Source: Escherichia phage SP27. From it: a stretch of DNA of 64,000 bases. The position numbers were made by a program, and so were the translations under genes. Shown piece by piece: positions 2,741-48,668 of the stretch. How positions within the stretch are numbered: position 1 is the first letter of the stretch; every line of letters starts with the position of its first letter. The notes below the pieces were generated by a model. That model was not told where the DNA came from. It saw only the letters and a list, made by a program, of their open reading frames with translations, and searched no databases. Where the stretch lies: the sequence record LC494302.1; one strand, 5' to 3'.

Positions 2741-2924
2741 GTTTATGTTTGAGGTGTTTGTTGCATTCATCTTATGTGCTGTGTCTATTACTATTGCTTT
2801 AATCCCAGTAATCGTTTACCAAGTTAATGGTGGGACAGATCCAACAATTGATATTTTACTTCGTTGTTTCGGGTTTTTTATATGGTTGGCGATGTTTATG
2901 TACTACATGCATCTTGAGGATTGA
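2727..2924 (+). CDS. small membrane protein
   Basis: 65 aa, two hydrophobic helices, coupled start. Confidence 0.4.
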   Translation: METIKFMFEVFVAFILCAVSITIALIPVIVYQVNGGTDPTIDILLRCFGFFIWLAMFMYYMHLED

Positions 2925-3757
2925 TTATGTCATTAGAAAAAATAATCATTTCTGAATTCCGAAAGTATATCATGGATTGTGATAGAGATGTACAGCGTAA
3001 GTTCAATGAGTACCTTGACAAATATCCGTATTTGATGTTTAATCCGTTTGAAACTGATGATGATTTATATCTTGGTTTTTACATAGGATTTACTCAACGA
3101 ATTCTTCATAAAGATGAAATGAAACAATCTGAGATTTGGGTAGAAACTGACTCATCCGAGTCTAATGTTTTTTATCTTTATACATATTATGCCGAAATTG
3201 TTAGAGATACGACACCTGATGGTTGTCTATTTGTACAATCTTCTGATATTGAAAGAATATATATCGAACCTGTATCTTTAGATATGGTTGCACAGCTTCC
3301 AACTATCCAACAGTTAGGTGCAGACGAATTAACTTATTCTGTATTTGAATATCTAGGTAGAGATGATTTGACTCAAGAAATTGATAAAATGGTTTCTAAA
3401 TATACTTCATCACTTATTTCGAATGGTAAACTTAAATTAGAACTAATTTTTGAAGATACTAGTATTAATCCAGTAAGAGGGGTTACAATTGGAAAAGTTA
3501 CCATACGTGTTGTTTACGATAATGAAGTACTAGGATATATTTCAAAACGTGGACATGATTTATGTATAATTAGTACATTCGTTATTTCTCGTAAAAAATG
3601 GAATGATTTAATGCAAAAAATCGTGGACGGCAGTAAAATTCGTGATATAATATGTAATGACATGGTAATTATGAATCCTGATGTTGACTGTGATGTATAT
3701 TTTCCAGTTCCTGGATTTACACGAGAAAACTTTAGTAAATTGAAGGATACGAAATGA
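2921..3757 (+). CDS. hypothetical protein
   Basis: 278 aa ORF, overlapping start/stop with neighbours. Confidence 0.55.
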   Translation: MIMSLEKIIISEFRKYIMDCDRDVQRKFNEYLDKYPYLMFNPFETDDDLYLGFYIGFTQRILHKDEMKQSEIWVETDSSESNVFYLYTYYAEIVRDTTPDGCLFVQSSDIERIYIEPVSLDMVAQLPTIQQLGADELTYSVFEYLGRDDLTQEIDKMVSKYTSSLISNGKLKLELIFEDTSINPVRGVTIGKVTIRVVYDNEVLGYISKRGHDLCIISTFVISRKKWNDLMQKIVDGSKIRDIICNDMVIMNPDVDCDVYFPVPGFTRENFSKLKDTK

Positions 3758-5960: not shown

Positions 5961-5974
5961 AACGTTACTTTGTA

Positions 5975-6004
5975 AATACCCAGTACTTGACTGGGTATTT
6001 TTTT
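5975..6004 (+). terminator. intrinsic terminator
   Basis: Hairpin ACCCAGTAC-ttg-ACTGGGT followed by T7 run. Confidence 0.6.
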
Positions 6005-27743: not shown

Positions 27744-28052
27744 ATGTTTCAAACTAACACTCAAGGTTTTGTAATCATCGATTTGAATCAAAACAGCGGT
27801 TATTGGATGAAACCTACTGACGCATGTATGCAGTTTGATTTTTTAGGTTACAGGATTAGTGTAAGTACTGGTGCTTCTGTACTGAGAGGTGGTTGTATCG
27901 TTGAACATCTGGTAACTGATCCAGAAGGTCGTGAGTATGAAATCGCAGGTTCAGTACAAGATGCCATTATGTTTGTATGTCAGCGTGAAATGAATGGTTC
28001 GAATTCAAATGCACTGACTCATGCTCTTTCTCAAGAAGTGGAGGTTCGTTAA
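27744..28052 (+). CDS. hypothetical protein
   Basis: 102 aa, TGAGGAA RBS. Confidence 0.45.
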   Translation: MFQTNTQGFVIIDLNQNSGYWMKPTDACMQFDFLGYRISVSTGASVLRGGCIVEHLVTDPEGREYEIAGSVQDAIMFVCQREMNGSNSNALTHALSQEVEVR

Positions 28053-28297
28053 TGAAATACATTGTAGCAGTACTCGTCGCATTTCTACTCACTGCATGTG
28101 ATGCTTCTACCAAAGAACGTACAAGTGATTTTGTTCTACCTGCTGAATTAAAAGAAGCAGGGTGTAAGATTTATCGTATGCAACAAGATGGTGCTGGTGC
28201 AACTTTATACACTGTGTACTGTCCTAATGCAAATACAAGTACTGGATACACTAGCGGTAAAACACGAATCAACACTTCCGTAATTCATGGAGAATAA
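28052..28297 (+). CDS. putative lipoprotein
   Basis: Signal peptide with lipobox LLTAC (MKYIVAVLVAFLLTACDAS). Confidence 0.5.
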   Translation: MKYIVAVLVAFLLTACDASTKERTSDFVLPAELKEAGCKIYRMQQDGAGATLYTVYCPNANTSTGYTSGKTRINTSVIHGE

Positions 28298-30708: not shown

Positions 30709-31371
30709 ATGTTAGTTAATCTTAATTTCATCACTTCACCTGACTGGGCATTACGTGGAGTTTCTTTAAACTTCAAGGAAACTATGTTTGACTACATTGG
30801 TGAGTGTACATTGGTAAATGCAACTTTTGATCCAAATCATCCGTTTTGGGCTGAAATTCATGATCCAAATGTAAACAACAATACATCTGTTATGACTATT
30901 GTCCAGACTAAACATGCAGGTATCCTTGCAGGTTATCGACCTGCACATGCAATTGAACACTTCACTGATTACGATGTCGTGGATGAATACCCAATGATCC
31001 ATGAAGATGGAAGTCTATACACATCTGAAGACTTCCGTGCTATCTTTAATAGTACTGATGATATTCTACCAAGTGGACGTCCACGTCCTGAGTCTTATCT
31101 TATGCATCCATCTTATGGTGTAGCAGATACGCTTGAACAGATTATGAATAAGTACAAGAACCTAATTGAAGGTCCAGAAGAAATTGTCCTGTGCTATCAC
31201 CCAGTACTGAAGTCTGAACAACCAAAGGATGGTGGATGGCGTTGGCATAAGAATGGTGAGTATATCGGTACTAAACGAAGTAAAGAACGTTTTGAGTACT
31301 TGTGTGATGAGCCAGATGTTGATGTGGTTTTGTGTTATAATTTTATTAAGGTGAAAAAGAAATGTATCTAG
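30709..31371 (+). CDS. hypothetical protein
   Basis: Start at MLVNLNF after GAGGATA RBS; 220 aa. Confidence 0.5.
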   Translation: MLVNLNFITSPDWALRGVSLNFKETMFDYIGECTLVNATFDPNHPFWAEIHDPNVNNNTSVMTIVQTKHAGILAGYRPAHAIEHFTDYDVVDEYPMIHEDGSLYTSEDFRAIFNSTDDILPSGRPRPESYLMHPSYGVADTLEQIMNKYKNLIEGPEEIVLCYHPVLKSEQPKDGGWRWHKNGEYIGTKRSKERFEYLCDEPDVDVVLCYNFIKVKKKCI

Positions 31372-31604
31372 TACTAAGTTTTGTTGTTGCACTATTGTTT
31401 ATGTTCTATCCTACACTAGTGGCATTAGCCACTAGACGAACGATGGTAGATCTCACTACTGTATTCTTGCTAAACGTGGCATTAGTACTGGTGTCTATTA
31501 TCATTCCAGTGAGCTTTACAGTTATTGATATTATTTCGGTATTACTCTTCGTGTTAAGTTATCTTATGCTTATTGAAGAAACAAATGTTGACAAACGTTC
31601 GTAG
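31362..31604 (+). CDS. small membrane protein
   Basis: 80 aa, two TM helices. Confidence 0.4.
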   Translation: MYLVLSFVVALLFMFYPTLVALATRRTMVDLTTVFLLNVALVLVSIIIPVSFTVIDIISVLLFVLSYLMLIEETNVDKRS

Positions 31605-31615
31605 TACTGTATAAT
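31588..31615 (+). promoter_or_regulatory. sigma70-like early promoter
   Basis: TTGACA ... GTAGTACTG-TATAAT. Confidence 0.5.
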
Positions 31616-31661
31616 GGTTCCTGTAGTCTGAAACTTAACACTTAAACTTGAGGTAAAAAAT

Positions 31662-31988
31662 ATGCTATCAGTACTAATTTCAATTCCGTCTTTAATTCTG
31701 ATTTGGCTTCTGGTTTACGAATGCTTTATTACTGATGATAATGATAAAAAAGAGTTCTCTGAGTTGTTTATGCTTGATTCGCCGATTGTGCGTATTTTCT
31801 ATACAGTCGTTGTGGTTTCAGTAATTGTATGGGTTTTGAGTTTTATCTTCCCACTCGGTGCAGTAGTTAAAACTTTGGATTTAGTTGAGAACTTTGTTGC
31901 AATTATGTGGCTAATCAAAGCACTATTTGCAGGAAATGTTAAAATTTGGATTGATATTATCAAATTCAAGTTCACGAATAAGATGTAA
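31662..31988 (+). CDS. multi-TM membrane protein
   Basis: 108 aa hydrophobic, TGAGGTAAA RBS. Confidence 0.45.
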   Translation: MLSVLISIPSLILIWLLVYECFITDDNDKKEFSELFMLDSPIVRIFYTVVVVSVIVWVLSFIFPLGAVVKTLDLVENFVAIMWLIKALFAGNVKIWIDIIKFKFTNKM

Positions 31989-32066
31989 CAGTGAAAATAT
32001 CTCTATAGTATTAAATACTTCTGTACATATATATAGTACAGAAGTATTTCTCGTTAGAGGTTTGTT

Positions 32067-32426
32067 ATGAAGAGTTATATAAAATTAATAGCACTTGTGT
32101 GTGCATTATTTTCATGTTTTAGTTATGGTGCAGCAGCAGAAACATATTGTCGTAGTACTAAGGGAACGTGGCATGTATTGACTAACGACCCTAGAAATGG
32201 TAAAAATATAGTTGTTGATGGTGTGATTTATCGTTTTAAAGTAGAAAGTATTATCGGTAATAAAAAAATCTCGACTTATAGAGATGATTCTGGTACATTA
32301 GCAAACGTAATATTAATTGTAGACCCAAGAACTGGTAATGGTGATATCTATATAGTAATTTACTTGGACTCATCGGTACGCCGTGACCTAGATATAGATA
32401 AATTGAACTTACACTGTGAAATATAG
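32067..32426 (+). CDS. secreted protein (paralog of 32818)
   Basis: Signal peptide MKSYIKLIALVCALFSCFSYGAAAE; AGAGG RBS. Confidence 0.5.
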   Translation: MKSYIKLIALVCALFSCFSYGAAAETYCRSTKGTWHVLTNDPRNGKNIVVDGVIYRFKVESIIGNKKISTYRDDSGTLANVILIVDPRTGNGDIYIVIYLDSSVRRDLDIDKLNLHCEI

Positions 32427-32437
32427 GACTTAAAAAA

Positions 32438-32815
32438 ATGGTAAACACTATTTTACTTTTGTTGTTGAATATTCCAATTATTCTGTCTTTTTTAATTTCT
32501 ATTTTTATGGCAGGATATTGTTTAGTTGCAGTAATTCATTTCATTTTAACAAACAAATATGTCCTAATTTCTAAGCTTGATTCTATTTTTGCTTGCGATT
32601 CGATTGCTTATAACTTGTGGTTAATTTGTTCTTGCATTATGGGAGTAACTTTCCTTCTGTATGTATTTGATGTCCTTGACCAAAAGTTCGTATACATCAG
32701 TACTGGATTGGCTCTTTATCCTGCTACGTGGTACTTGATTTACGTTGGTGATATATGGTATAGTACTTATAAAGAATATCAGTACAAGAAATCACTTAAC
32801 GTTGGAGGAAAATAA
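32438..32815 (+). CDS. multi-TM membrane protein
   Basis: 125 aa hydrophobic. Confidence 0.45.
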   Translation: MVNTILLLLLNIPIILSFLISIFMAGYCLVAVIHFILTNKYVLISKLDSIFACDSIAYNLWLICSCIMGVTFLLYVFDVLDQKFVYISTGLALYPATWYLIYVGDIWYSTYKEYQYKKSLNVGGK

Positions 32816-32817
32816 TC

Positions 32818-33192
32818 ATGAAAATTATTTTATTTTTTGTATGTATGTTAATGTGTGGATTGTCATATGCTGAACCATTGGAAGGTTTAGTTTGTACAGA
32901 TGGTAATATTAAACATATCTATCAAGGTGATAGTGACGATCGAGATATTGTATATATTGATGGACAATCATATACGTTTGTTAAAGAGCATACAGTAGGC
33001 GACATTAGCTTCACTGAGTTTTCTAACGACACAGACCCTAACTTCTTAGCGTTTATTGAAGTAGATGTATATGAAGATAGTAATGGCACACAATATGCTA
33101 AATTAGTTATGATGCGTCGTGGTGCTAAAGAAACTAGTTTTGGTGGCTTGTGTAAATATAAGGATTGGTATTATGTTGATTTATCAAAGTGA
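32818..33192 (+). CDS. secreted protein (paralog of 32067)
   Basis: Signal peptide MKIILFFVCMLMCGLSYAEP; GGAGGAAAA RBS. Confidence 0.5.
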   Translation: MKIILFFVCMLMCGLSYAEPLEGLVCTDGNIKHIYQGDSDDRDIVYIDGQSYTFVKEHTVGDISFTEFSNDTDPNFLAFIEVDVYEDSNGTQYAKLVMMRRGAKETSFGGLCKYKDWYYVDLSK

Positions 33193-33355
33193 TAATATTC
33201 GTGTTATGCAGCATCCCTACTTACAAATCTTTGATGTGCAGCAGTATATGGAAGGTGATGACCCAAGAACCTATGGTCGTAAGTATGATTACTTCACTGT
33301 AAAGCAGTGTAAAAATATTAACGAAGTACGACAATTAGTTCAAGAACTTCAAAAC

Positions 33356-33390
33356 AAAGGTTGACTTCGGTCAGCCTTTTTTGTTATAAT
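33356..33390 (+). promoter_or_regulatory. PeSL-like terminator/promoter hybrid
   Basis: AAAGGTTGAC-ttcg-GTCAGCCTTTTTT; TTGACT lies in the stem, TATAAT 18 bp downstream. Confidence 0.6.
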
Positions 33391-33418
33391 TCTCTTAATA
33401 AATTAGAGGATTTTAATT

Positions 33419-33859
33419 ATGTATGTATATCGTTTTGAACTTAAATTTAGTTACATTGAACCTAACTTAGATCCTGCACGAACTGTAGGTCCGTTTGCAC
33501 GGTATTCAACCAGATACAGTACTAAAAATGGATTTGACCGTTTGCTTATGACTACACCTTCTCAATTCCAACCTGAACCAACTGAGGATGGGATCTATTC
33601 AATCAAAAGTGGATGGGTATTTGGCTGTCAAAGTTTGAAAGATTTGTTCAGATTCTTCACTATGGACTTGGGTAAATTGCATCGTGCTGGGTTTGCTATA
33701 TCTGTATATGAAGTTCCAGACCACCATGTAGACATTGGTCGTAATCAGGTTCAGTACTATTGCGGTAGTGCTAAATTAGTTCGTATCATGTCAGTTAAGG
33801 AAGCAAAGGATGAGTTCCGACAAAGTAAAAGAGAAACACATGAGGTAATATATGGATAA
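33419..33859 (+). CDS. hypothetical protein
   Basis: 146 aa, AGAGGA RBS. Confidence 0.5.
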   Translation: MYVYRFELKFSYIEPNLDPARTVGPFARYSTRYSTKNGFDRLLMTTPSQFQPEPTEDGIYSIKSGWVFGCQSLKDLFRFFTMDLGKLHRAGFAISVYEVPDHHVDIGRNQVQYYCGSAKLVRIMSVKEAKDEFRQSKRETHEVIYG

Positions 33860-34835: not shown

Positions 34836-35057
34836 ATGAAATATATAGTACTTGTACTGATATTATTCAGTACTGTTGTAAGTGCTAAACAAAAAGAATA
34901 TGTTAAATGTATAAATTATGAAGAGAAATATGTTGAAACATATAAAAAAAGTATAATTAAAAACGTTTCGATTACTAACAGAGCAACAATCATTGTACTT
35001 AAAAATGGGTTAATTATGCTATATAAACCACACGTTAAATGTGAAATTATTAATTGA
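34836..35057 (+). CDS. secreted small protein
   Basis: Signal peptide MKYIVLVLILFSTVVSA. Confidence 0.4.
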   Translation: MKYIVLVLILFSTVVSAKQKEYVKCINYEEKYVETYKKSIIKNVSITNRATIIVLKNGLIMLYKPHVKCEIIN

Positions 35058-38188: not shown

Positions 38189-38440
38189 ATGAAAAAATAT
38201 ATTATATTTGGAATTGTATTATTTTCCAGTACTGCTTATGGTGCAGATTATCATTGCTCCGTAGCAAGGCAGGATTTCAGAAATGGGGAGTTCTATACTA
38301 CCTCATACACAAAAGGAATAATACACGACACCGACAGAACTATTGGATTTAATGCGTTTGACAACAAAGATTCATATACTTCAGGTATACTATCTGAGCG
38401 TAAGACTGATGTAATGGGAATAGAAAAAGAGTTTCGGTGA
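38189..38440 (+). CDS. secreted small protein
   Basis: Start at MKKYIIFGIVLFSSTAYGADY; upstream in-frame codons are the PeSL itself. Confidence 0.45.
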   Translation: MKKYIIFGIVLFSSTAYGADYHCSVARQDFRNGEFYTTSYTKGIIHDTDRTIGFNAFDNKDSYTSGILSERKTDVMGIEKEFR

Positions 38441-40259: not shown

Positions 40260-40598
40260 ATGGAACAATATTTTGAATTAATAAACAAAGTATCATTTTA
40301 TGTAGTATCTTTGGTTTGGGTGTATTATATGTTTTGCTACATTATTGCATTCTTCCGATACACTACTTTATATGAACGTATCTACTATGATGCCCCAATT
40401 TCATTCTTGATGTTTTGTGCATGTACGTGGGGAATATTAGAAGTACTGATATGTGGGTATAGTACTGATGAATTAAATCTGGTATCGGTCTTGACTGGGT
40501 TTTCATTTGTTGTTATGATAGCTGCCGTTCCAGTATGGTTGTTCTTTGGACTAGTTCATCGCATTGATATATGGCGTTCTAATATCCCTGAAAAGTAA
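40260..40598 (+). CDS. small multi-TM protein, array A member 1
   Basis: 112 aa, 3-4 TM helices, basic tail RSNIPEK. Confidence 0.5.
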   Translation: MEQYFELINKVSFYVVSLVWVYYMFCYIIAFFRYTTLYERIYYDAPISFLMFCACTWGILEVLICGYSTDELNLVSVLTGFSFVVMIAAVPVWLFFGLVHRIDIWRSNIPEK

Positions 40599-40607
40599 GG
40601 ATTGGTA

Positions 40608-40949
40608 ATGATTTATTACACTAACATGTTTGCCTATGCTGTTGCTTGCATTTACATTGTTTACTTCTTATTTGGTGGAGTACTGTGCTTCTTTAAGTAC
40701 AAAACGTTGTTCAACCGAATGTACCCAAATCATCCAATTGTAGTTGTACTTTTGATTCTTTCAGTTTCTCAAATAATCGTTGAAACTACAATGGGTATCA
40801 GTAGTGTACATTATAGTTTTGGTACTATAGTAATTATTACTATGCTTATTGCATACATTTTAGTACTTGGATATGGTATCTTTGGTAATATTGGTATGAA
40901 AATGTATCATCGAATTAAAACATTACGTGATAATCTACCGGAGCGTTGA
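40608..40949 (+). CDS. small multi-TM protein, array A member 2
   Basis: Paralog; tail LRDNLPER. Confidence 0.5.
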   Translation: MIYYTNMFAYAVACIYIVYFLFGGVLCFFKYKTLFNRMYPNHPIVVVLLILSVSQIIVETTMGISSVHYSFGTIVIITMLIAYILVLGYGIFGNIGMKMYHRIKTLRDNLPER

Positions 40950-40950
40950 T

Positions 40951-41295
40951 ATGTATAATTTGAACCTAATCTCATATATTATAACAACACTGTTTACATT
41001 CTATGCCTTTGTTGGTATAATCCTACTGTACTTTAAATTTTATAAAGTGTTTAACCGTTTCTATCCTTCAATGGAGAATGAGTTTTTCTTTGTGTTGTAC
41101 GTATGTTACACATTCATGGCTACATGTTTCACTGTAGTCGATGGTGTCATCGGCATTAAAACTGCTGCACCAAATGGTAGTACGCTGGTTGCATTTATTC
41201 TTACCGGATTCCTTGCAACTTATATTGCCTTCATTGCAACATGGTCAGTGGTTGAATTTCTCTTGCGACTACGAAAGAATATGCCGAATCGATAG
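40951..41295 (+). CDS. small multi-TM protein, array A member 3
   Basis: Paralog; tail LRKNMPNR; TGATATG coupling. Confidence 0.5.
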   Translation: MYNLNLISYIITTLFTFYAFVGIILLYFKFYKVFNRFYPSMENEFFFVLYVCYTFMATCFTVVDGVIGIKTAAPNGSTLVAFILTGFLATYIAFIATWSVVEFLLRLRKNMPNR

Positions 41296-44984: not shown

Positions 44985-45020
44985 TAAAGGGTTGACTTCG
45001 GTCAGCCCTTTTTGCTATAA
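44985..45020 (+). promoter_or_regulatory. PeSL-like terminator/promoter hybrid
   Basis: AAAGGGTTGAC-ttcg-GTCAGCCCTTTTT; TTGACT-18-TATAAT. Confidence 0.65.
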
Positions 45021-45049
45021 TTATTTCATCAACTGAAGAGGGTAAAGAA

Positions 45050-45887: not shown

Positions 45888-46229
45888 ATGCTTGAGTTTT
45901 TTAATTCAGATACAATGCTTGGTATCACGCTAATTTACATGTTTGTATTCTTGTTTTATCATTCAATTGTAATTAGTCTTTGGTATTTTAAAAGGAAAGT
46001 TGTTTTTAAATTGTATTCGTATGATAATGTACTCTTAGTAGTATATAGCATTATACAAGGTGGGTTTATTTTATTTGGTGTGATGACATATGTGATTTAC
46101 ATGTTACAAATTGATAATACACCACACATTACACAATATGTTGTGTTTTCAGGACTAATCGTCTGGTTATTGGTGTGTACTCTGTATTTTATTATTAAAG
46201 CTCGTGATAACTTTAAATGGGGATTCTAA
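45888..46229 (+). CDS. small multi-TM protein, array B member 1
   Basis: MLEFFNSDTMLGITLIYMF; 113 aa. Confidence 0.5.
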   Translation: MLEFFNSDTMLGITLIYMFVFLFYHSIVISLWYFKRKVVFKLYSYDNVLLVVYSIIQGGFILFGVMTYVIYMLQIDNTPHITQYVVFSGLIVWLLVCTLYFIIKARDNFKWGF

Positions 46230-46567
46230 TGTTAGAATTTTTTAAATCAGATACAATGATTAGTATTACTTTGATTTATCTGTTTGGTTTTTTCTTTTAT
46301 CATGCACTAGTTGTAGTACTATGGTATTTTAAAAAGAAAATTGTTTTTAAACTGTATCCAGTGAGGAATTCATCACTAGTTCTTTACACACTTGTTCAAG
46401 GTTTGTTTGCAATTGTTGGTCTTATGGCACACTTAATTTATTGTGCCAATCCTCACTTGAACTCAATCTCACAATATATTGTATTCTTTGGGTTGTTCAT
46501 TTGGTTAGTTGTATACTTAATCCATCTCATTATTCATGGTAGAGATAAAATTCGCGGAGACTTCTAA
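46229..46567 (+). CDS. small multi-TM protein, array B member 2
   Basis: MLEFFKSDTMISITLIYLF, clear paralog; TAATG coupling. Confidence 0.5.
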   Translation: MLEFFKSDTMISITLIYLFGFFFYHALVVVLWYFKKKIVFKLYPVRNSSLVLYTLVQGLFAIVGLMAHLIYCANPHLNSISQYIVFFGLFIWLVVYLIHLIIHGRDKIRGDF

Positions 46568-46914
46568 TGTTTGAAGCTTATCTTGAGTTTTTAAGGAGTA
46601 GTCCAGTTGCACATTCACTTGCAGGGATTATTCTAACAACTTATGTATCATTTTGGGTAGTTATGTTTCTAGGATGGTATTTTAAACGACAATTCTATAA
46701 ACGTAATGGTGAAGATTTTATGAATTCTGTCATTAATCAATCGTTGTTTGCATCAACATTGATTGCATGTATTGTAGCAACACTCACAGGAAAGGTACTA
46801 CCAGCTTTTTCCGCAGTTTACGGCACACTTGGGATGATATGTTTAACTTTTATATTGACCATTAAAATTTGTTGTGTTATGATTGAACTTCGAAATAAGA
46901 TACCGGAGGAATGA
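46567..46914 (+). CDS. small multi-TM protein, array B member 3
   Basis: Hydrophobic, tail ELRNKIPEE. Confidence 0.5.
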   Translation: MFEAYLEFLRSSPVAHSLAGIILTTYVSFWVVMFLGWYFKRQFYKRNGEDFMNSVINQSLFASTLIACIVATLTGKVLPAFSAVYGTLGMICLTFILTIKICCVMIELRNKIPEE

Positions 46915-47249
46915 TGGAGTACTTTATTGATTTACTGCCGTGGTATATGAAAGTTAGTACCATGTACTATATTATTAGTGCTGGATTCTACTTTCTGATG
47001 TGGTTCTTTAAACGACCAATTTCAGTATTCATCGCTGATAACATGTTGCAATTAAAATTACACGCATGGTTTGGTATGGCGATGATTATGCCTATTATTC
47101 ACTACTCAATGATTAGTAGAGGTTTCCGTTCTAATGGTGAACCAATTGTATTAGTATTCTATTGGGGTTCAACTATTGCATATGTAAGTTTGTTGTTGTT
47201 CCCAGTCGTTCATAAGTTACGTGCTAAAGTTCCTGATGCGAGGTACTAA
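46911..47249 (+). CDS. small multi-TM protein, array B member 4
   Basis: Tail KLRAKVPDARY. Confidence 0.5.
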   Translation: MMEYFIDLLPWYMKVSTMYYIISAGFYFLMWFFKRPISVFIADNMLQLKLHAWFGMAMIMPIIHYSMISRGFRSNGEPIVLVFYWGSTIAYVSLLLFPVVHKLRAKVPDARY

Positions 47250-47563
47250 TGGATATAGTAACATTGATTTACACGTTGTATTCATTCTATTTCATTATGT
47301 GTTGGGTTGGATTTTTATTTGTACTCAAGATGTTTGATTATGTTGAAAAACAGATAAAAGAATTTTGTATTCCTTTTATCGGTTCAACCATTATTAGTGT
47401 TTCTTGTGTGTATTTTTTGGTTTTTGATCCACCAGATAACACTGCAATGATTGACTTGATGTTACTACCAACAACTGTTACTTTTTTATGTAGTCTGATG
47501 CCGCCGATTAGCCGTGGACTAACAGAATTTAGACGCAATCAAAAGCGTAAACGAGGGATGTAA
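47249..47563 (+). CDS. small multi-TM protein, array B member 5
   Basis: Basic tail RRNQKRKRGM. Confidence 0.5.
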   Translation: MDIVTLIYTLYSFYFIMCWVGFLFVLKMFDYVEKQIKEFCIPFIGSTIISVSCVYFLVFDPPDNTAMIDLMLLPTTVTFLCSLMPPISRGLTEFRRNQKRKRGM

Positions 47564-47931
47564 TGGAAATTGCTCTTATTATCTTAACTGCTATGCTGTT
47601 TATTAGTACTGTGGTTATAATTGGTAAATTCTTTTGTGTATCATTTTTAGAAACGGTATACGATGAAATTGCTGATGATTATGAATTACAAGCCGGATTT
47701 TTCATTACGTATTGGCTTAGTTTATTTTGTCTAGTCATTGCTTGGATTTTACATATCTTTAAATGGGGTATGGTAGACGGTGATCCTATTATGGCAATTA
47801 TTGTTCTAGTGTTTGGTATCCTTGGTGGTGCAGTGCATAATCTAATGGTTATCTGGCAAACTGTTCAATATGTTTTGGTTCCCTATTTCGAAAAGATGCA
47901 CAGTACAATTAAAAAACGTAAACGAGGTTAG
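47563..47931 (+). CDS. small multi-TM protein, array B member 6
   Basis: Basic tail KKRKRG. Confidence 0.5.
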   Translation: MEIALIILTAMLFISTVVIIGKFFCVSFLETVYDEIADDYELQAGFFITYWLSLFCLVIAWILHIFKWGMVDGDPIMAIIVLVFGILGGAVHNLMVIWQTVQYVLVPYFEKMHSTIKKRKRG

Positions 47932-47932
47932 T

Positions 47933-48295
47933 ATGAACGGGATAGAATTATCTTTCGTTGGTCAATTACTAGTAATGGCGTATACATTTATCTTCTCACT
48001 GAATGCATTCGTGTGCATTGGGAAGTACTTCCATAAGCGACCATTATCAAATATATATGATGTAATCCAAAAGAGATATAGTCCAGCATATACTGTGTTG
48101 GGTACAGTATTCAATTTTGGTTTTATTGTATTAATAATTGGACTGTTCACATCCTCTTTGAATACAATAACCTTCGGTCTTATGATATGTTCATTGGTAT
48201 TAGCCGTAATTATATGTTGTTTAGTACTGCACCTTGTGGTACTATTGTATATAAAGATCTCTGAAATCCACCAACGTTTGGGTATGAGGAAATAA
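47933..48295 (+). CDS. small multi-TM protein, array B member 7
   Basis: Start at MNGIELSF after GAGGT. Confidence 0.45.
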   Translation: MNGIELSFVGQLLVMAYTFIFSLNAFVCIGKYFHKRPLSNIYDVIQKRYSPAYTVLGTVFNFGFIVLIIGLFTSSLNTITFGLMICSLVLAVIICCLVLHLVVLLYIKISEIHQRLGMRK

Positions 48296-48296
48296 T

Positions 48297-48668
48297 ATGA
48301 GTTACCGTGAGATATTTTCCATTATTTCAATTATTATGTTCAGTACTGGAACACTGGTATGGTTATTATACTTCTTCTGTATTAATCCAGTGTATAATAT
48401 GTTATGTAATATTAAATCAAGTGCCGGATATATCACTTTTATGGTCTTTATGGGATATTATTGTCTAAGCATTTTAGGTGTTGTTTTGGTTGTTATATTT
48501 GATGTGGGACCAAATAGTGATGGTATGGAAATACATGAATTAATAACCATGTTTGGATGTATGATACCAACAGCACTACTGTTTGTAGCTACTGGTAGTG
48601 GATTGATAAAATTATATAATTATTTAAAATCCATTCATAATTCCATTCATAATAAGCGTATGTCATAA
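48297..48668 (+). CDS. small multi-TM protein, array B member 8
   Basis: 123 aa, tail NKRMS. Confidence 0.5.
   Translation: MSYREIFSIISIIMFSTGTLVWLLYFFCINPVYNMLCNIKSSAGYITFMVFMGYYCLSILGVVLVVIFDVGPNSDGMEIHELITMFGCMIPTALLFVATGSGLIKLYNYLKSIHNSIHNKRMS

Follow-up and report, generated by a model that had tools for sequence, protein, structure and literature searches.

A conserved gene block encoding paired, predicted secreted β-barrel proteins in Escherichia phage SP27 and related jumbo phages

Several small proteins that inhibit lysozymes have been described. The early, signal-cleaved and disulfide-bonded T4 protein Spackle inhibits the gp5 tail lysozyme in the periplasm together with the membrane protein Imm; its helical structure was contrasted by the authors with that of MliC and PliC, which are β-sheet inhibitors (PMC7677548). 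In PliC/MliC, an SxSGAxY motif is located on loop 4 (β4-β5) and a YxxxTKG motif on β6, and the disulfide between β1 and β8 is preserved in MliC/PliC and in ACP, which inhibits lysozyme despite missing both motifs (PMC5507604). Another motif-less protein of the PliC fold, Brucella PhiA (PDB 7dpy), is a proposed inhibitor of the T4-lysozyme-like autolysin SagA. No description of phage-encoded PliC/MliC-fold proteins was found in the literature searched. Here, we analyzed a 64,000-nucleotide stretch of Escherichia phage SP27 (LC494302.1; hereafter the window), in which two genes for small exported proteins, A and B, flank a gene for a hydrophobic protein, M, and are preceded by another membrane protein gene, TM108 (table 1). 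Positions 31300-33500 share 99.5-99.9% identity with Asteriusvirus jumbo phages (121Q, PBECO4, G17, phAPEC6, CRJP21, and others). RaK2/121Q jumbo phages are therapy candidates, and more than 80% of their genes are of unknown function. Our analysis suggests that A and B are very probably secreted, paralogous, disulfide-clamped PliC-like barrels encoded in a conserved operon, so that four "hypothetical" genes can be assigned to a compartment and a fold, together with a role that can be tested.

Export signals and paralogy of A and B

The open reading frames (ORFs) of A, M, and B were confirmed and are also annotated in relatives. The N-terminus of A consists of MKSYIK, followed by LIALVCALFSCFSYG and AAA/E (the slash marks the predicted cleavage site), with the hydrophobic core LIALVCALFS, and that of B consists of MK, followed by IILFFVCMLMCGL and SYA/E, with the core IILFFVCMLM. 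The signal peptides that the first-pass annotation had assigned to both proteins are of canonical Sec type by rule, with small residues at -3/-1. All 24 collected family members (24/24) have a 10-residue core with a mean Kyte-Doolittle value of 2.5-3.8 and a small-residue -3/-1 site before the first conserved cysteine (Cys). This pattern is kept in every member although the signal sequences themselves vary, and the site is of the A-x-A type without a lipobox. Judged by these rules, A and B are exported by Sec signal peptides.

The first-pass annotation had also described A and B as paralogs with similar motifs. Full-length BLASTP aligned these motifs, VVDGVIYRFKVE and YIDGQSYTFVKE, with an E-value of 5e-6 and 22% identity. 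As signal peptides inflate such scores, the mature parts were tested alone. An alternative is that A and B are not homologous, in which case their likeness would reflect signal-peptide composition and chance, and their arrangement would be coincidental; an identity of just ~20-24% and a probability of 69% (E 4.4e-5) in the first mature-only hhalign comparison, based on shallow alignments, could be read in this way. However, the mature-only Smith-Waterman score of 48 was reached by 6 of 5000 shuffles, and addition of diverged homologs (A4, Turkey5, Ecwhy_1, and RaK2) raised mature-only hhalign to E 1.3e-6 and 90.7% probability, with an alignment that begins at the N-proximal Cys and, in global mode, pairs both Cys. 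Moreover, A matches the PHROG family of B (residues 25-77, E 0.0025), the two proteins have equal length and co-linear invariant Cys pairs, the structural model of B retrieves from BFVD a 111-aa RaK2-type protein (TM-score 0.62) which is probably an A homolog, and the A-M-B order is fixed in two genera. Non-homology is therefore very improbable. BLASTP, shuffles, and hhalign concur with the first-pass claim, and on these sequence comparisons we accept A and B as real but distant paralogs.

Exactly two conserved Cys are present in 23 of the 24 family members. The C-terminal Cys is invariant and the N-proximal one is missing only from a truncated sequence; the distance is 3-9 residues between the N-proximal Cys and the mature N-terminus, and 2-5 residues between the other Cys and the C-terminus. 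Both A and B are conserved at turn glycines and at these two Cys, and in the alignments these positions look structural rather than part of an obvious active loop.

The A/B family is very narrow: of the billions of sequences searched, about 15-25 belong to it. Among 1.84 billion cluster representatives, an exhaustive search with an HMMER profile gave 10 matches at E<=0.001, a word-indexed search of 5.8 billion gave 15 clusters, and an IMG/VR search returned only the 121Q genome. A and B had no match in NCBIfam or PADLOC, and in PHROG they matched only their own families of unknown function.

Predicted fold

The AlphaFold model of mature B (21 sequences; pLDDT 89.3, pTM 0.80) forms a β-barrel of eight strands, in which β1 (residues 6-10) contains Cys8 and β8 (residues 90-96) contains Cys94. 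Full-length A (10-sequence alignment) was modeled as an all-β protein with low confidence (pLDDT 65); its mature domain is β-rich and contains Cys4 and Cys93. In YdhA, the Cys residues are likewise found in β1 (EYQCDEK) and β8 (LNNCQLQ), along with the motifs ISASGARY and YVFWSKG; SxSGAxY is present in YdhA, Pseudomonas aeruginosa MliC, and Brucella PliC. Based on Cys placement as in YdhA, we infer a β1-β8 disulfide in the modeled A and B barrels. The mature domain of B is acidic (pI about 4.4), and B-type proteins are uniformly so (pI 4.1-4.9, net charge -5 to -15), whereas A-type proteins have a net charge of 0 to -8.

The best and most numerous close structural neighbors of the B model belong to the PliC/MliC/ACP class; since eight-stranded barrels of unrelated function score nearly as high, the assignment is to a PliC/MliC/ACP-like fold class and not to membership of the family.

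Foldseek searches of BFVD also detected a 93-aa protein of 121Q, A0A097EXD3, with a similar small-barrel fold (TM-score about 0.6, 18% identity), as well as a 113-aa "lipoprotein" of Serratia phage Scapp. A0A097EXD3 lies outside the window, where it was not located and neither of the 93-aa ORFs fits it. Further such barrels may be encoded elsewhere in the genome.

Gene order, divergence, and transcription signals

The order p226, TM80, TM108, A, M, B is common to Asteriusvirus phages (ph0011, Ecwhy_1, Turkey5, and A4) and is also found in Klebsiella phage RaK2 (Alcyoneusvirus, ORF262-267) and two metagenomic contigs; in all of these, TM108 is directly upstream of A. The stop codon of M overlaps the start codon of B (ATGA) in A4, Ecwhy_1, and two further loci (L008 and L009), which suggests translational coupling. 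The relevant unit thus exceeds the A-M-B coordinates of the first-pass annotation: TM108, A, M, and B form a conserved block that has a promoter, an internal hairpin, and a terminator of its own (table 1).

Table 1. Features of the TM108-A-M-B block and its surroundings (positions in the window)
Feature	Position	Strand	Description
TM80	31362..31604	+	80 aa, 2-3 hydrophobic segments (hydropathy); directly upstream of the block, syntenic
σ70 promoter, exact consensus	31588..31615	+	TTGACA, 16 nt, TATAAT; overlaps the 3' end of TM80; conserved in Asteriusvirus relatives
TM108	31662..31988	+	108-aa inner-membrane protein, ~3 transmembrane (TM) segments, basic C-terminal tail; first gene of the unit
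Intercistronic RNA hairpin	32013..32049	+	between TM108 and A; perfect 14-bp stem, 9-nt loop
Gene A (121Q gp188)	32067..32426	+	119-aa precursor; signal peptide residues 1-24 (32067-32138); mature domain 95 aa
Gene M (121Q gp189)	32438..32815	+	125-aa inner-membrane protein, 3-4 TM segments
Gene B (121Q gp190)	32818..33192	+	124 aa; signal peptide residues 1-18; mature domain 98 aa
p64	33173..33364	+	63-aa non-membrane protein; highly conserved within Asteriusvirus, replaced in RaK2
Intrinsic terminator	33356..33379	+	stem holds the -35 box of the next σ70 promoter (33361-33390); closes the unit

Compared with Ecwhy_1, identity is 59% for TM108, 63% for A, 43% for M, and 77% for B, against 92-94% for the flanking genes, and a similar divergence pattern was observed in comparison with ph0011. 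M is the fastest-diverging gene of the block. dN/dS values were 0.05-0.34 for all genes (in the more distant of the pairs, dS had reached saturation for A, M, and B), which shows at the sequence level that the block is under purifying selection; positive selection was considered and found no support in these values. Low dN/dS combined with identity below that of the flanks implies a functional module that diverges faster than its surroundings. An arms race would fit such divergence, but so would weaker constraint on envelope proteins.

M is strongly hydrophobic, as the first-pass annotation had said of the protein between A and B: a 39-residue N-terminal hydrophobic stretch is followed by a clear second TM segment, an aromatic third segment bearing a conserved C-terminal motif (WY.IY..D.WY..Y.EY), and a Lys-rich tail, presumed to be cytoplasmic. 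TM108 matched only its own PHROG family of unknown function. Duplication of a two-gene module (TM108 plus A, M plus B) was considered and rejected, as TM108 and M gave a BLASTP E-value of 6.7 and an hhalign E-value of 0.15 (0.4% probability); they are alike only in architecture and in a short F..DSP loop motif. In A4, RaK2, and the metagenomic locus L008, a gene for a DksA/TraR-type C4 zinc-finger protein is located between TM80 and TM108 (coordinates in loci L004, L003, and L008: 1778-2038, about 2760-3030, and 428-688). The window does not have this gene, and the gap between TM80 and TM108 is occupied by the σ70 promoter alone.

This promoter is presumed to be the early promoter of a TM108-A-M-B-p64 unit; p64 is presumably cotranscribed with the block and probably lies outside the envelope module. 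The window contains 10 exact-consensus σ70 sites (TTGACA, 16-18 nt, TATAAT; 2107, 3967, 4514, 12249, 19121, 20967, 22329, 27273, 31588, and 41941), all on the + strand, with 0.19 expected by chance, and is predicted to be a dense early-gene region read by host polymerase. RpoD-like promoters of the related phage CBB are concentrated where short hypothetical ORFs lie, in regions considered early by the authors (PMC5259590). Expression data for the RaK2/121Q phage group were not found in the literature searched.

The hairpin between TM108 and A is formed by a 14-bp inverted repeat (AAATACTTCTGTAC and GTACAGAAGTATTT; ΔG -19.5 kcal/mol, z -5.05). Across eight loci including RaK2, 93% of cells are paired, with two compensatory pairs as well as wobble changes; in most relatives, the hairpin is followed by a T-rich run. 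It is likely a leaky terminator or attenuator, or an mRNA-stability element. A second AAATAC...GTATTT hairpin is present at 5974-6000. The TWAAATAC sequence at the 5' edge of the hairpin between TM108 and A was considered as a T4-late-like promoter box and rejected, since it is not enriched in the window (11 found, 16.5 expected). The terminator that closes the unit is annotated in G17 and conserved in relatives. A recurring cassette, GGTTGACTTCGGTCAGCCTTTTTTGTTATAAT, in which a terminator hairpin carries a σ70 -35 box in its stem and the -10 box lies just downstream, occurs four times in the window (33359-33390, 39213-44, 43708-39, and 44990-45021) versus 0 expected; it resembles the promoter-stem-loop cassettes of T4-type phages.

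Existing annotations of these genes differ. In the 121Q reference (NC_025447.1, 97434-97763 and 98182-98505), gp188 and gp190 begin at internal codons (109 and 107 aa), so that the signal peptides of A and B are truncated and hidden, and in phAPEC6 (MK817115.1, ~33160-33609) gene A is left unannotated. All records label the genes "hypothetical" except that of CRJP21 (OQ708376.1), in which the B homolog (gp_527) and one further gene are called "structural protein". B in the window exceeds its counterparts in all relatives by 8 aa: a TGA to TGG change at 33168 removes the ancestral stop (33166-33168) and adds WYYVDLSK, crossing the start of the next gene. This could be a mutation specific to the strain or an error in sequencing.

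The first-pass annotation had further described a phage rich in small envelope-directed proteins, which is borne out by ~35 of 130 crude window ORFs being membrane or secreted by hydropathy rules, and by the particular ORFs it listed: a lipobox (LTAC) is present at 28052 and 28665, and signal-like N-termini at 38189 and 38784. Membership of these four ORFs and of 34836 in the A/B family was rejected (shuffle z <=2.3), and the HMM found only A and B, with 34836 marginal. The latter ORF (34836-35057) encodes a 73-aa signal-peptide protein (VSA/KQK) with one Cys near the mature N-terminus and one near the C-terminus, the latter in HVKCEIIN, which is comparable to NLHCEI of A; a search of 375 ORFs with the A/B HMM gave it an E-value of 0.014. 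At this length it could not form a full barrel, and it is possibly a degenerate A/B relative. The lipoprotein candidate at 28052-28297 (phrog_902, E 1.5e-13) weakly matches the PHROG of the Cor superinfection-exclusion lipoprotein (E 0.008), and could be a further exclusion factor encoded in this early region. At 40260-41295 (three genes) and 45888-48668 (~seven genes), small multi-TM proteins of about 104-141 aa that resemble each other at the N-terminus are encoded in tandem. They are probably membrane-protein paralog families, a larger envelope-directed set than the A/B block.

Possible function and comparison with known systems

The first-pass annotation had offered no function for A and B. 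A tentative hypothesis is that A and B, as old and diverged duplicates of one gene, would be transcribed with TM108 and M from the host-type early promoter and would, on account of that promoter, act soon after infection. Each precursor would be exported by Sec and cut by signal peptidase I. The mature protein, of ~95-100 residues, would fold in the periplasm as a minimal up-and-down β-barrel of eight strands, with a disulfide joining the first strand to the last. The barrels may then act as periplasmic protein-binding inhibitors. Their most likely target would be a peptidoglycan-degrading enzyme, for example, the tail lysozyme carried by a second phage arriving at the cell, or else a different muralytic enzyme or toxin, and TM108 and M would act at the inner membrane. 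Together, these proteins would form an envelope-protection or superinfection-exclusion module working like T4 Spackle plus Imm, with a different fold. An early periplasmic inhibitor or envelope-protection module is the explanation we favor overall, although only tentatively; a specifically muralytic-inhibitor or superinfection-exclusion function is possible but rather doubtful.

The exact σ70 promoter upstream of the unit is consistent with early action. Candidate targets are the basic GH24 T4-type lysozyme of this phage group (pI 9.19; PMC12805682), represented by 121Q YP_009102173.1 and LysUE1, and a 96-kDa lysozyme-family protein (gp241) detected by mass spectrometry (MS) in the phAPEC6 virion. 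The contrast between the acidic B-type proteins and the basic GH24 lysozyme is in favor of such a target. Also in favor of the hypothesis are the precedents of ACP, PhiA, and Spackle, the absence of the block's proteins from the phAPEC6 virion list, the functional constraint indicated by a gene order kept in two genera and by dN/dS of 0.05-0.27, and the local peak of divergence.

Several observations weigh against this hypothesis or parts of it. The signal peptides were judged by rules (n/h/c regions) and pattern conservation rather than by a trained predictor, and the hairpin could end transcription before A, which would make early expression of A-M-B uncertain. Non-lysozyme barrels, including Tp0751, Cap15, the T6SS immunity protein BtaiB, avidins, and staphostatins, score only slightly below PliC. 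Neither A nor B contains SxSGAxY, the β4-β5 link being a two-residue turn, TIG(D/N), in the model, and YxxxTKG was found in no A- or B-type sequence; without the motifs and with only a tight turn at loop 4, the canonical loop-insertion mode of binding would not be used. Remote sequence homology to PliC/MliC was rejected, as Pfam gave no match at E<=1, the A/B profile found no PliC/MliC chain among PDB sequences at E<=10, and hhalign against a three-sequence MliC alignment gave 0.1% probability. For PhiA, inhibition of SagA was not reproduced in vitro (PMC8334348). In addition, a protein with 3-4 TM segments and its C-terminus inside, as proposed for M, exposes very little to the periplasm, so that direct contact of A or B with M is unsupported. 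Finally, GH24 is ~95-96% conserved between clades and A ~69%; thus, divergence of A does not track GH24.

Absence of the lysozyme-binding motifs and the many non-lysozyme barrels scoring near PliC fit periplasmic binders that have a non-muralytic target and serve host takeover or protection rather than inhibition of phage lysozyme. Candidates would be a host envelope protein (for example, a Tol/Ton or porin component, a transporter, or a periplasmic protease) or a small ligand or lipid (as in lipocalin- or avidin-like proteins); in one variant, the barrels would neutralize periplasm-acting toxins in the manner of T6SS or colicin immunity proteins. The structural look of the positions common to A and B also fits this reading. 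On the other hand, the closest structural neighbors are PliC/MliC/ACP proteins with the same size, compartment, and β1-β8 disulfide, and a minimal barrel of ~95 residues would leave little ligand cavity. We regard a non-muralytic binder as unlikely, though still a serious alternative.

Three membrane proteins of holin-like size, each with 2-4 TM segments and a C-terminal tail that is charged or basic, raise the question of lysis timing: TM80 (with 2-3 TM segments), TM108 (~3), and M could be holin- or antiholin-like, and A and B could regulate hole formation from the periplasm, as RI acts on the T holin of T4. RI is a small secreted periplasmic regulator, but its fold is unlike a β-barrel. Furthermore, the exact σ70 promoter and early-region context favor early over late expression, no endolysin, spanin, or lysis-enzyme domain was recognized among the immediate neighbors scanned, and M and TM108 offer almost no periplasmic domain to which A or B could bind. 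A lysis-timing module is thus improbable. As for the label given to CRJP21 gp_527, a virion structural role of B would have to accommodate a signal peptide that is cleavable by rule, and the other records all read "hypothetical protein". None of gp045c-gp049c is among the 62 proteins in virion MS of phAPEC6, which is >99% identical here; this argues against the label, and we consider a structural role the least probable of all the explanations weighed.

What is new here is a very narrow sequence family in which a known inhibitor fold occurs in phage, duplicated and linked to membrane proteins; the analysis adds a fold assignment, a conserved four-gene module with regulatory elements, and a testable hypothesis. 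For annotation, the 121Q start codons, the omission of A in phAPEC6, and the "structural" label of B are points to be noted. If the barrels inhibit muralytic enzymes, phages reached the bacterial PliC/MliC solution independently of helical Spackle, and superinfection exclusion by jumbo phages would become directly testable. More speculatively, and with a low probability, A and B could represent a second, structurally independent class of phage periplasmic muralytic inhibitors, of PliC fold versus helical Spackle, with two specificities and inner-membrane partners, providing fast-evolving early exclusion or shielding in RaK2/121Q jumbo phages. The two specificities would be those of a strongly acidic B and a near-neutral A.

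Holins are small TM proteins with a charged C-terminal tail, as are TM108 and M, but holins are expressed late and linked to endolysin or spanin genes, whereas the block has an early-type σ70 promoter and no lysis-enzyme domain among the neighbors scanned. T4 Spackle (gp61.3) is small, periplasmic, signal-cleaved, and disulfide-bonded; A and B match the signal by rule and the disulfide by prediction. Spackle is partnered with a small inner-membrane protein, as proposed for A and B with TM108 and M. However, Spackle is an α-helical bundle with no sequence or fold relationship to the all-β barrels of A and B, and the Spackle and Imm genes are neither adjacent nor duplicated, unlike the A/B block; the relationship is one of analogy, not membership.

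PliC/MliC proteins (PF09864; PDB 3oe3, 2f09, 3f6z, and 4mir), which are periplasmic or membrane-bound, are eight-stranded antiparallel β-barrels of ~85-100 residues, and are like A and B in this fold as well as in compartment, size, and placement of Cys in β1 and β8. PliC is exported by a signal peptide and MliC by a lipobox; A and B have a signal peptide (by rule) without a lipobox. Unlike PliC/MliC, A and B come from a phage, as duplicated genes that alternate with genes for small inner-membrane proteins, and, whereas PliC/MliC inhibit C-type lysozyme, any target of A and B would not be the animal C-type enzyme. PhiA differs from A and B in being tetrameric, bacterial, and found in a T4SS context. 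Neisseria ACP (PDB 6gq4 and related entries) has the fold and β1-β8 disulfide predicted for A and B and is motif-less. With <20% sequence similarity to PliC/MliC it is still a lysozyme inhibitor, and it provides a precedent for a motif-less member of this fold.

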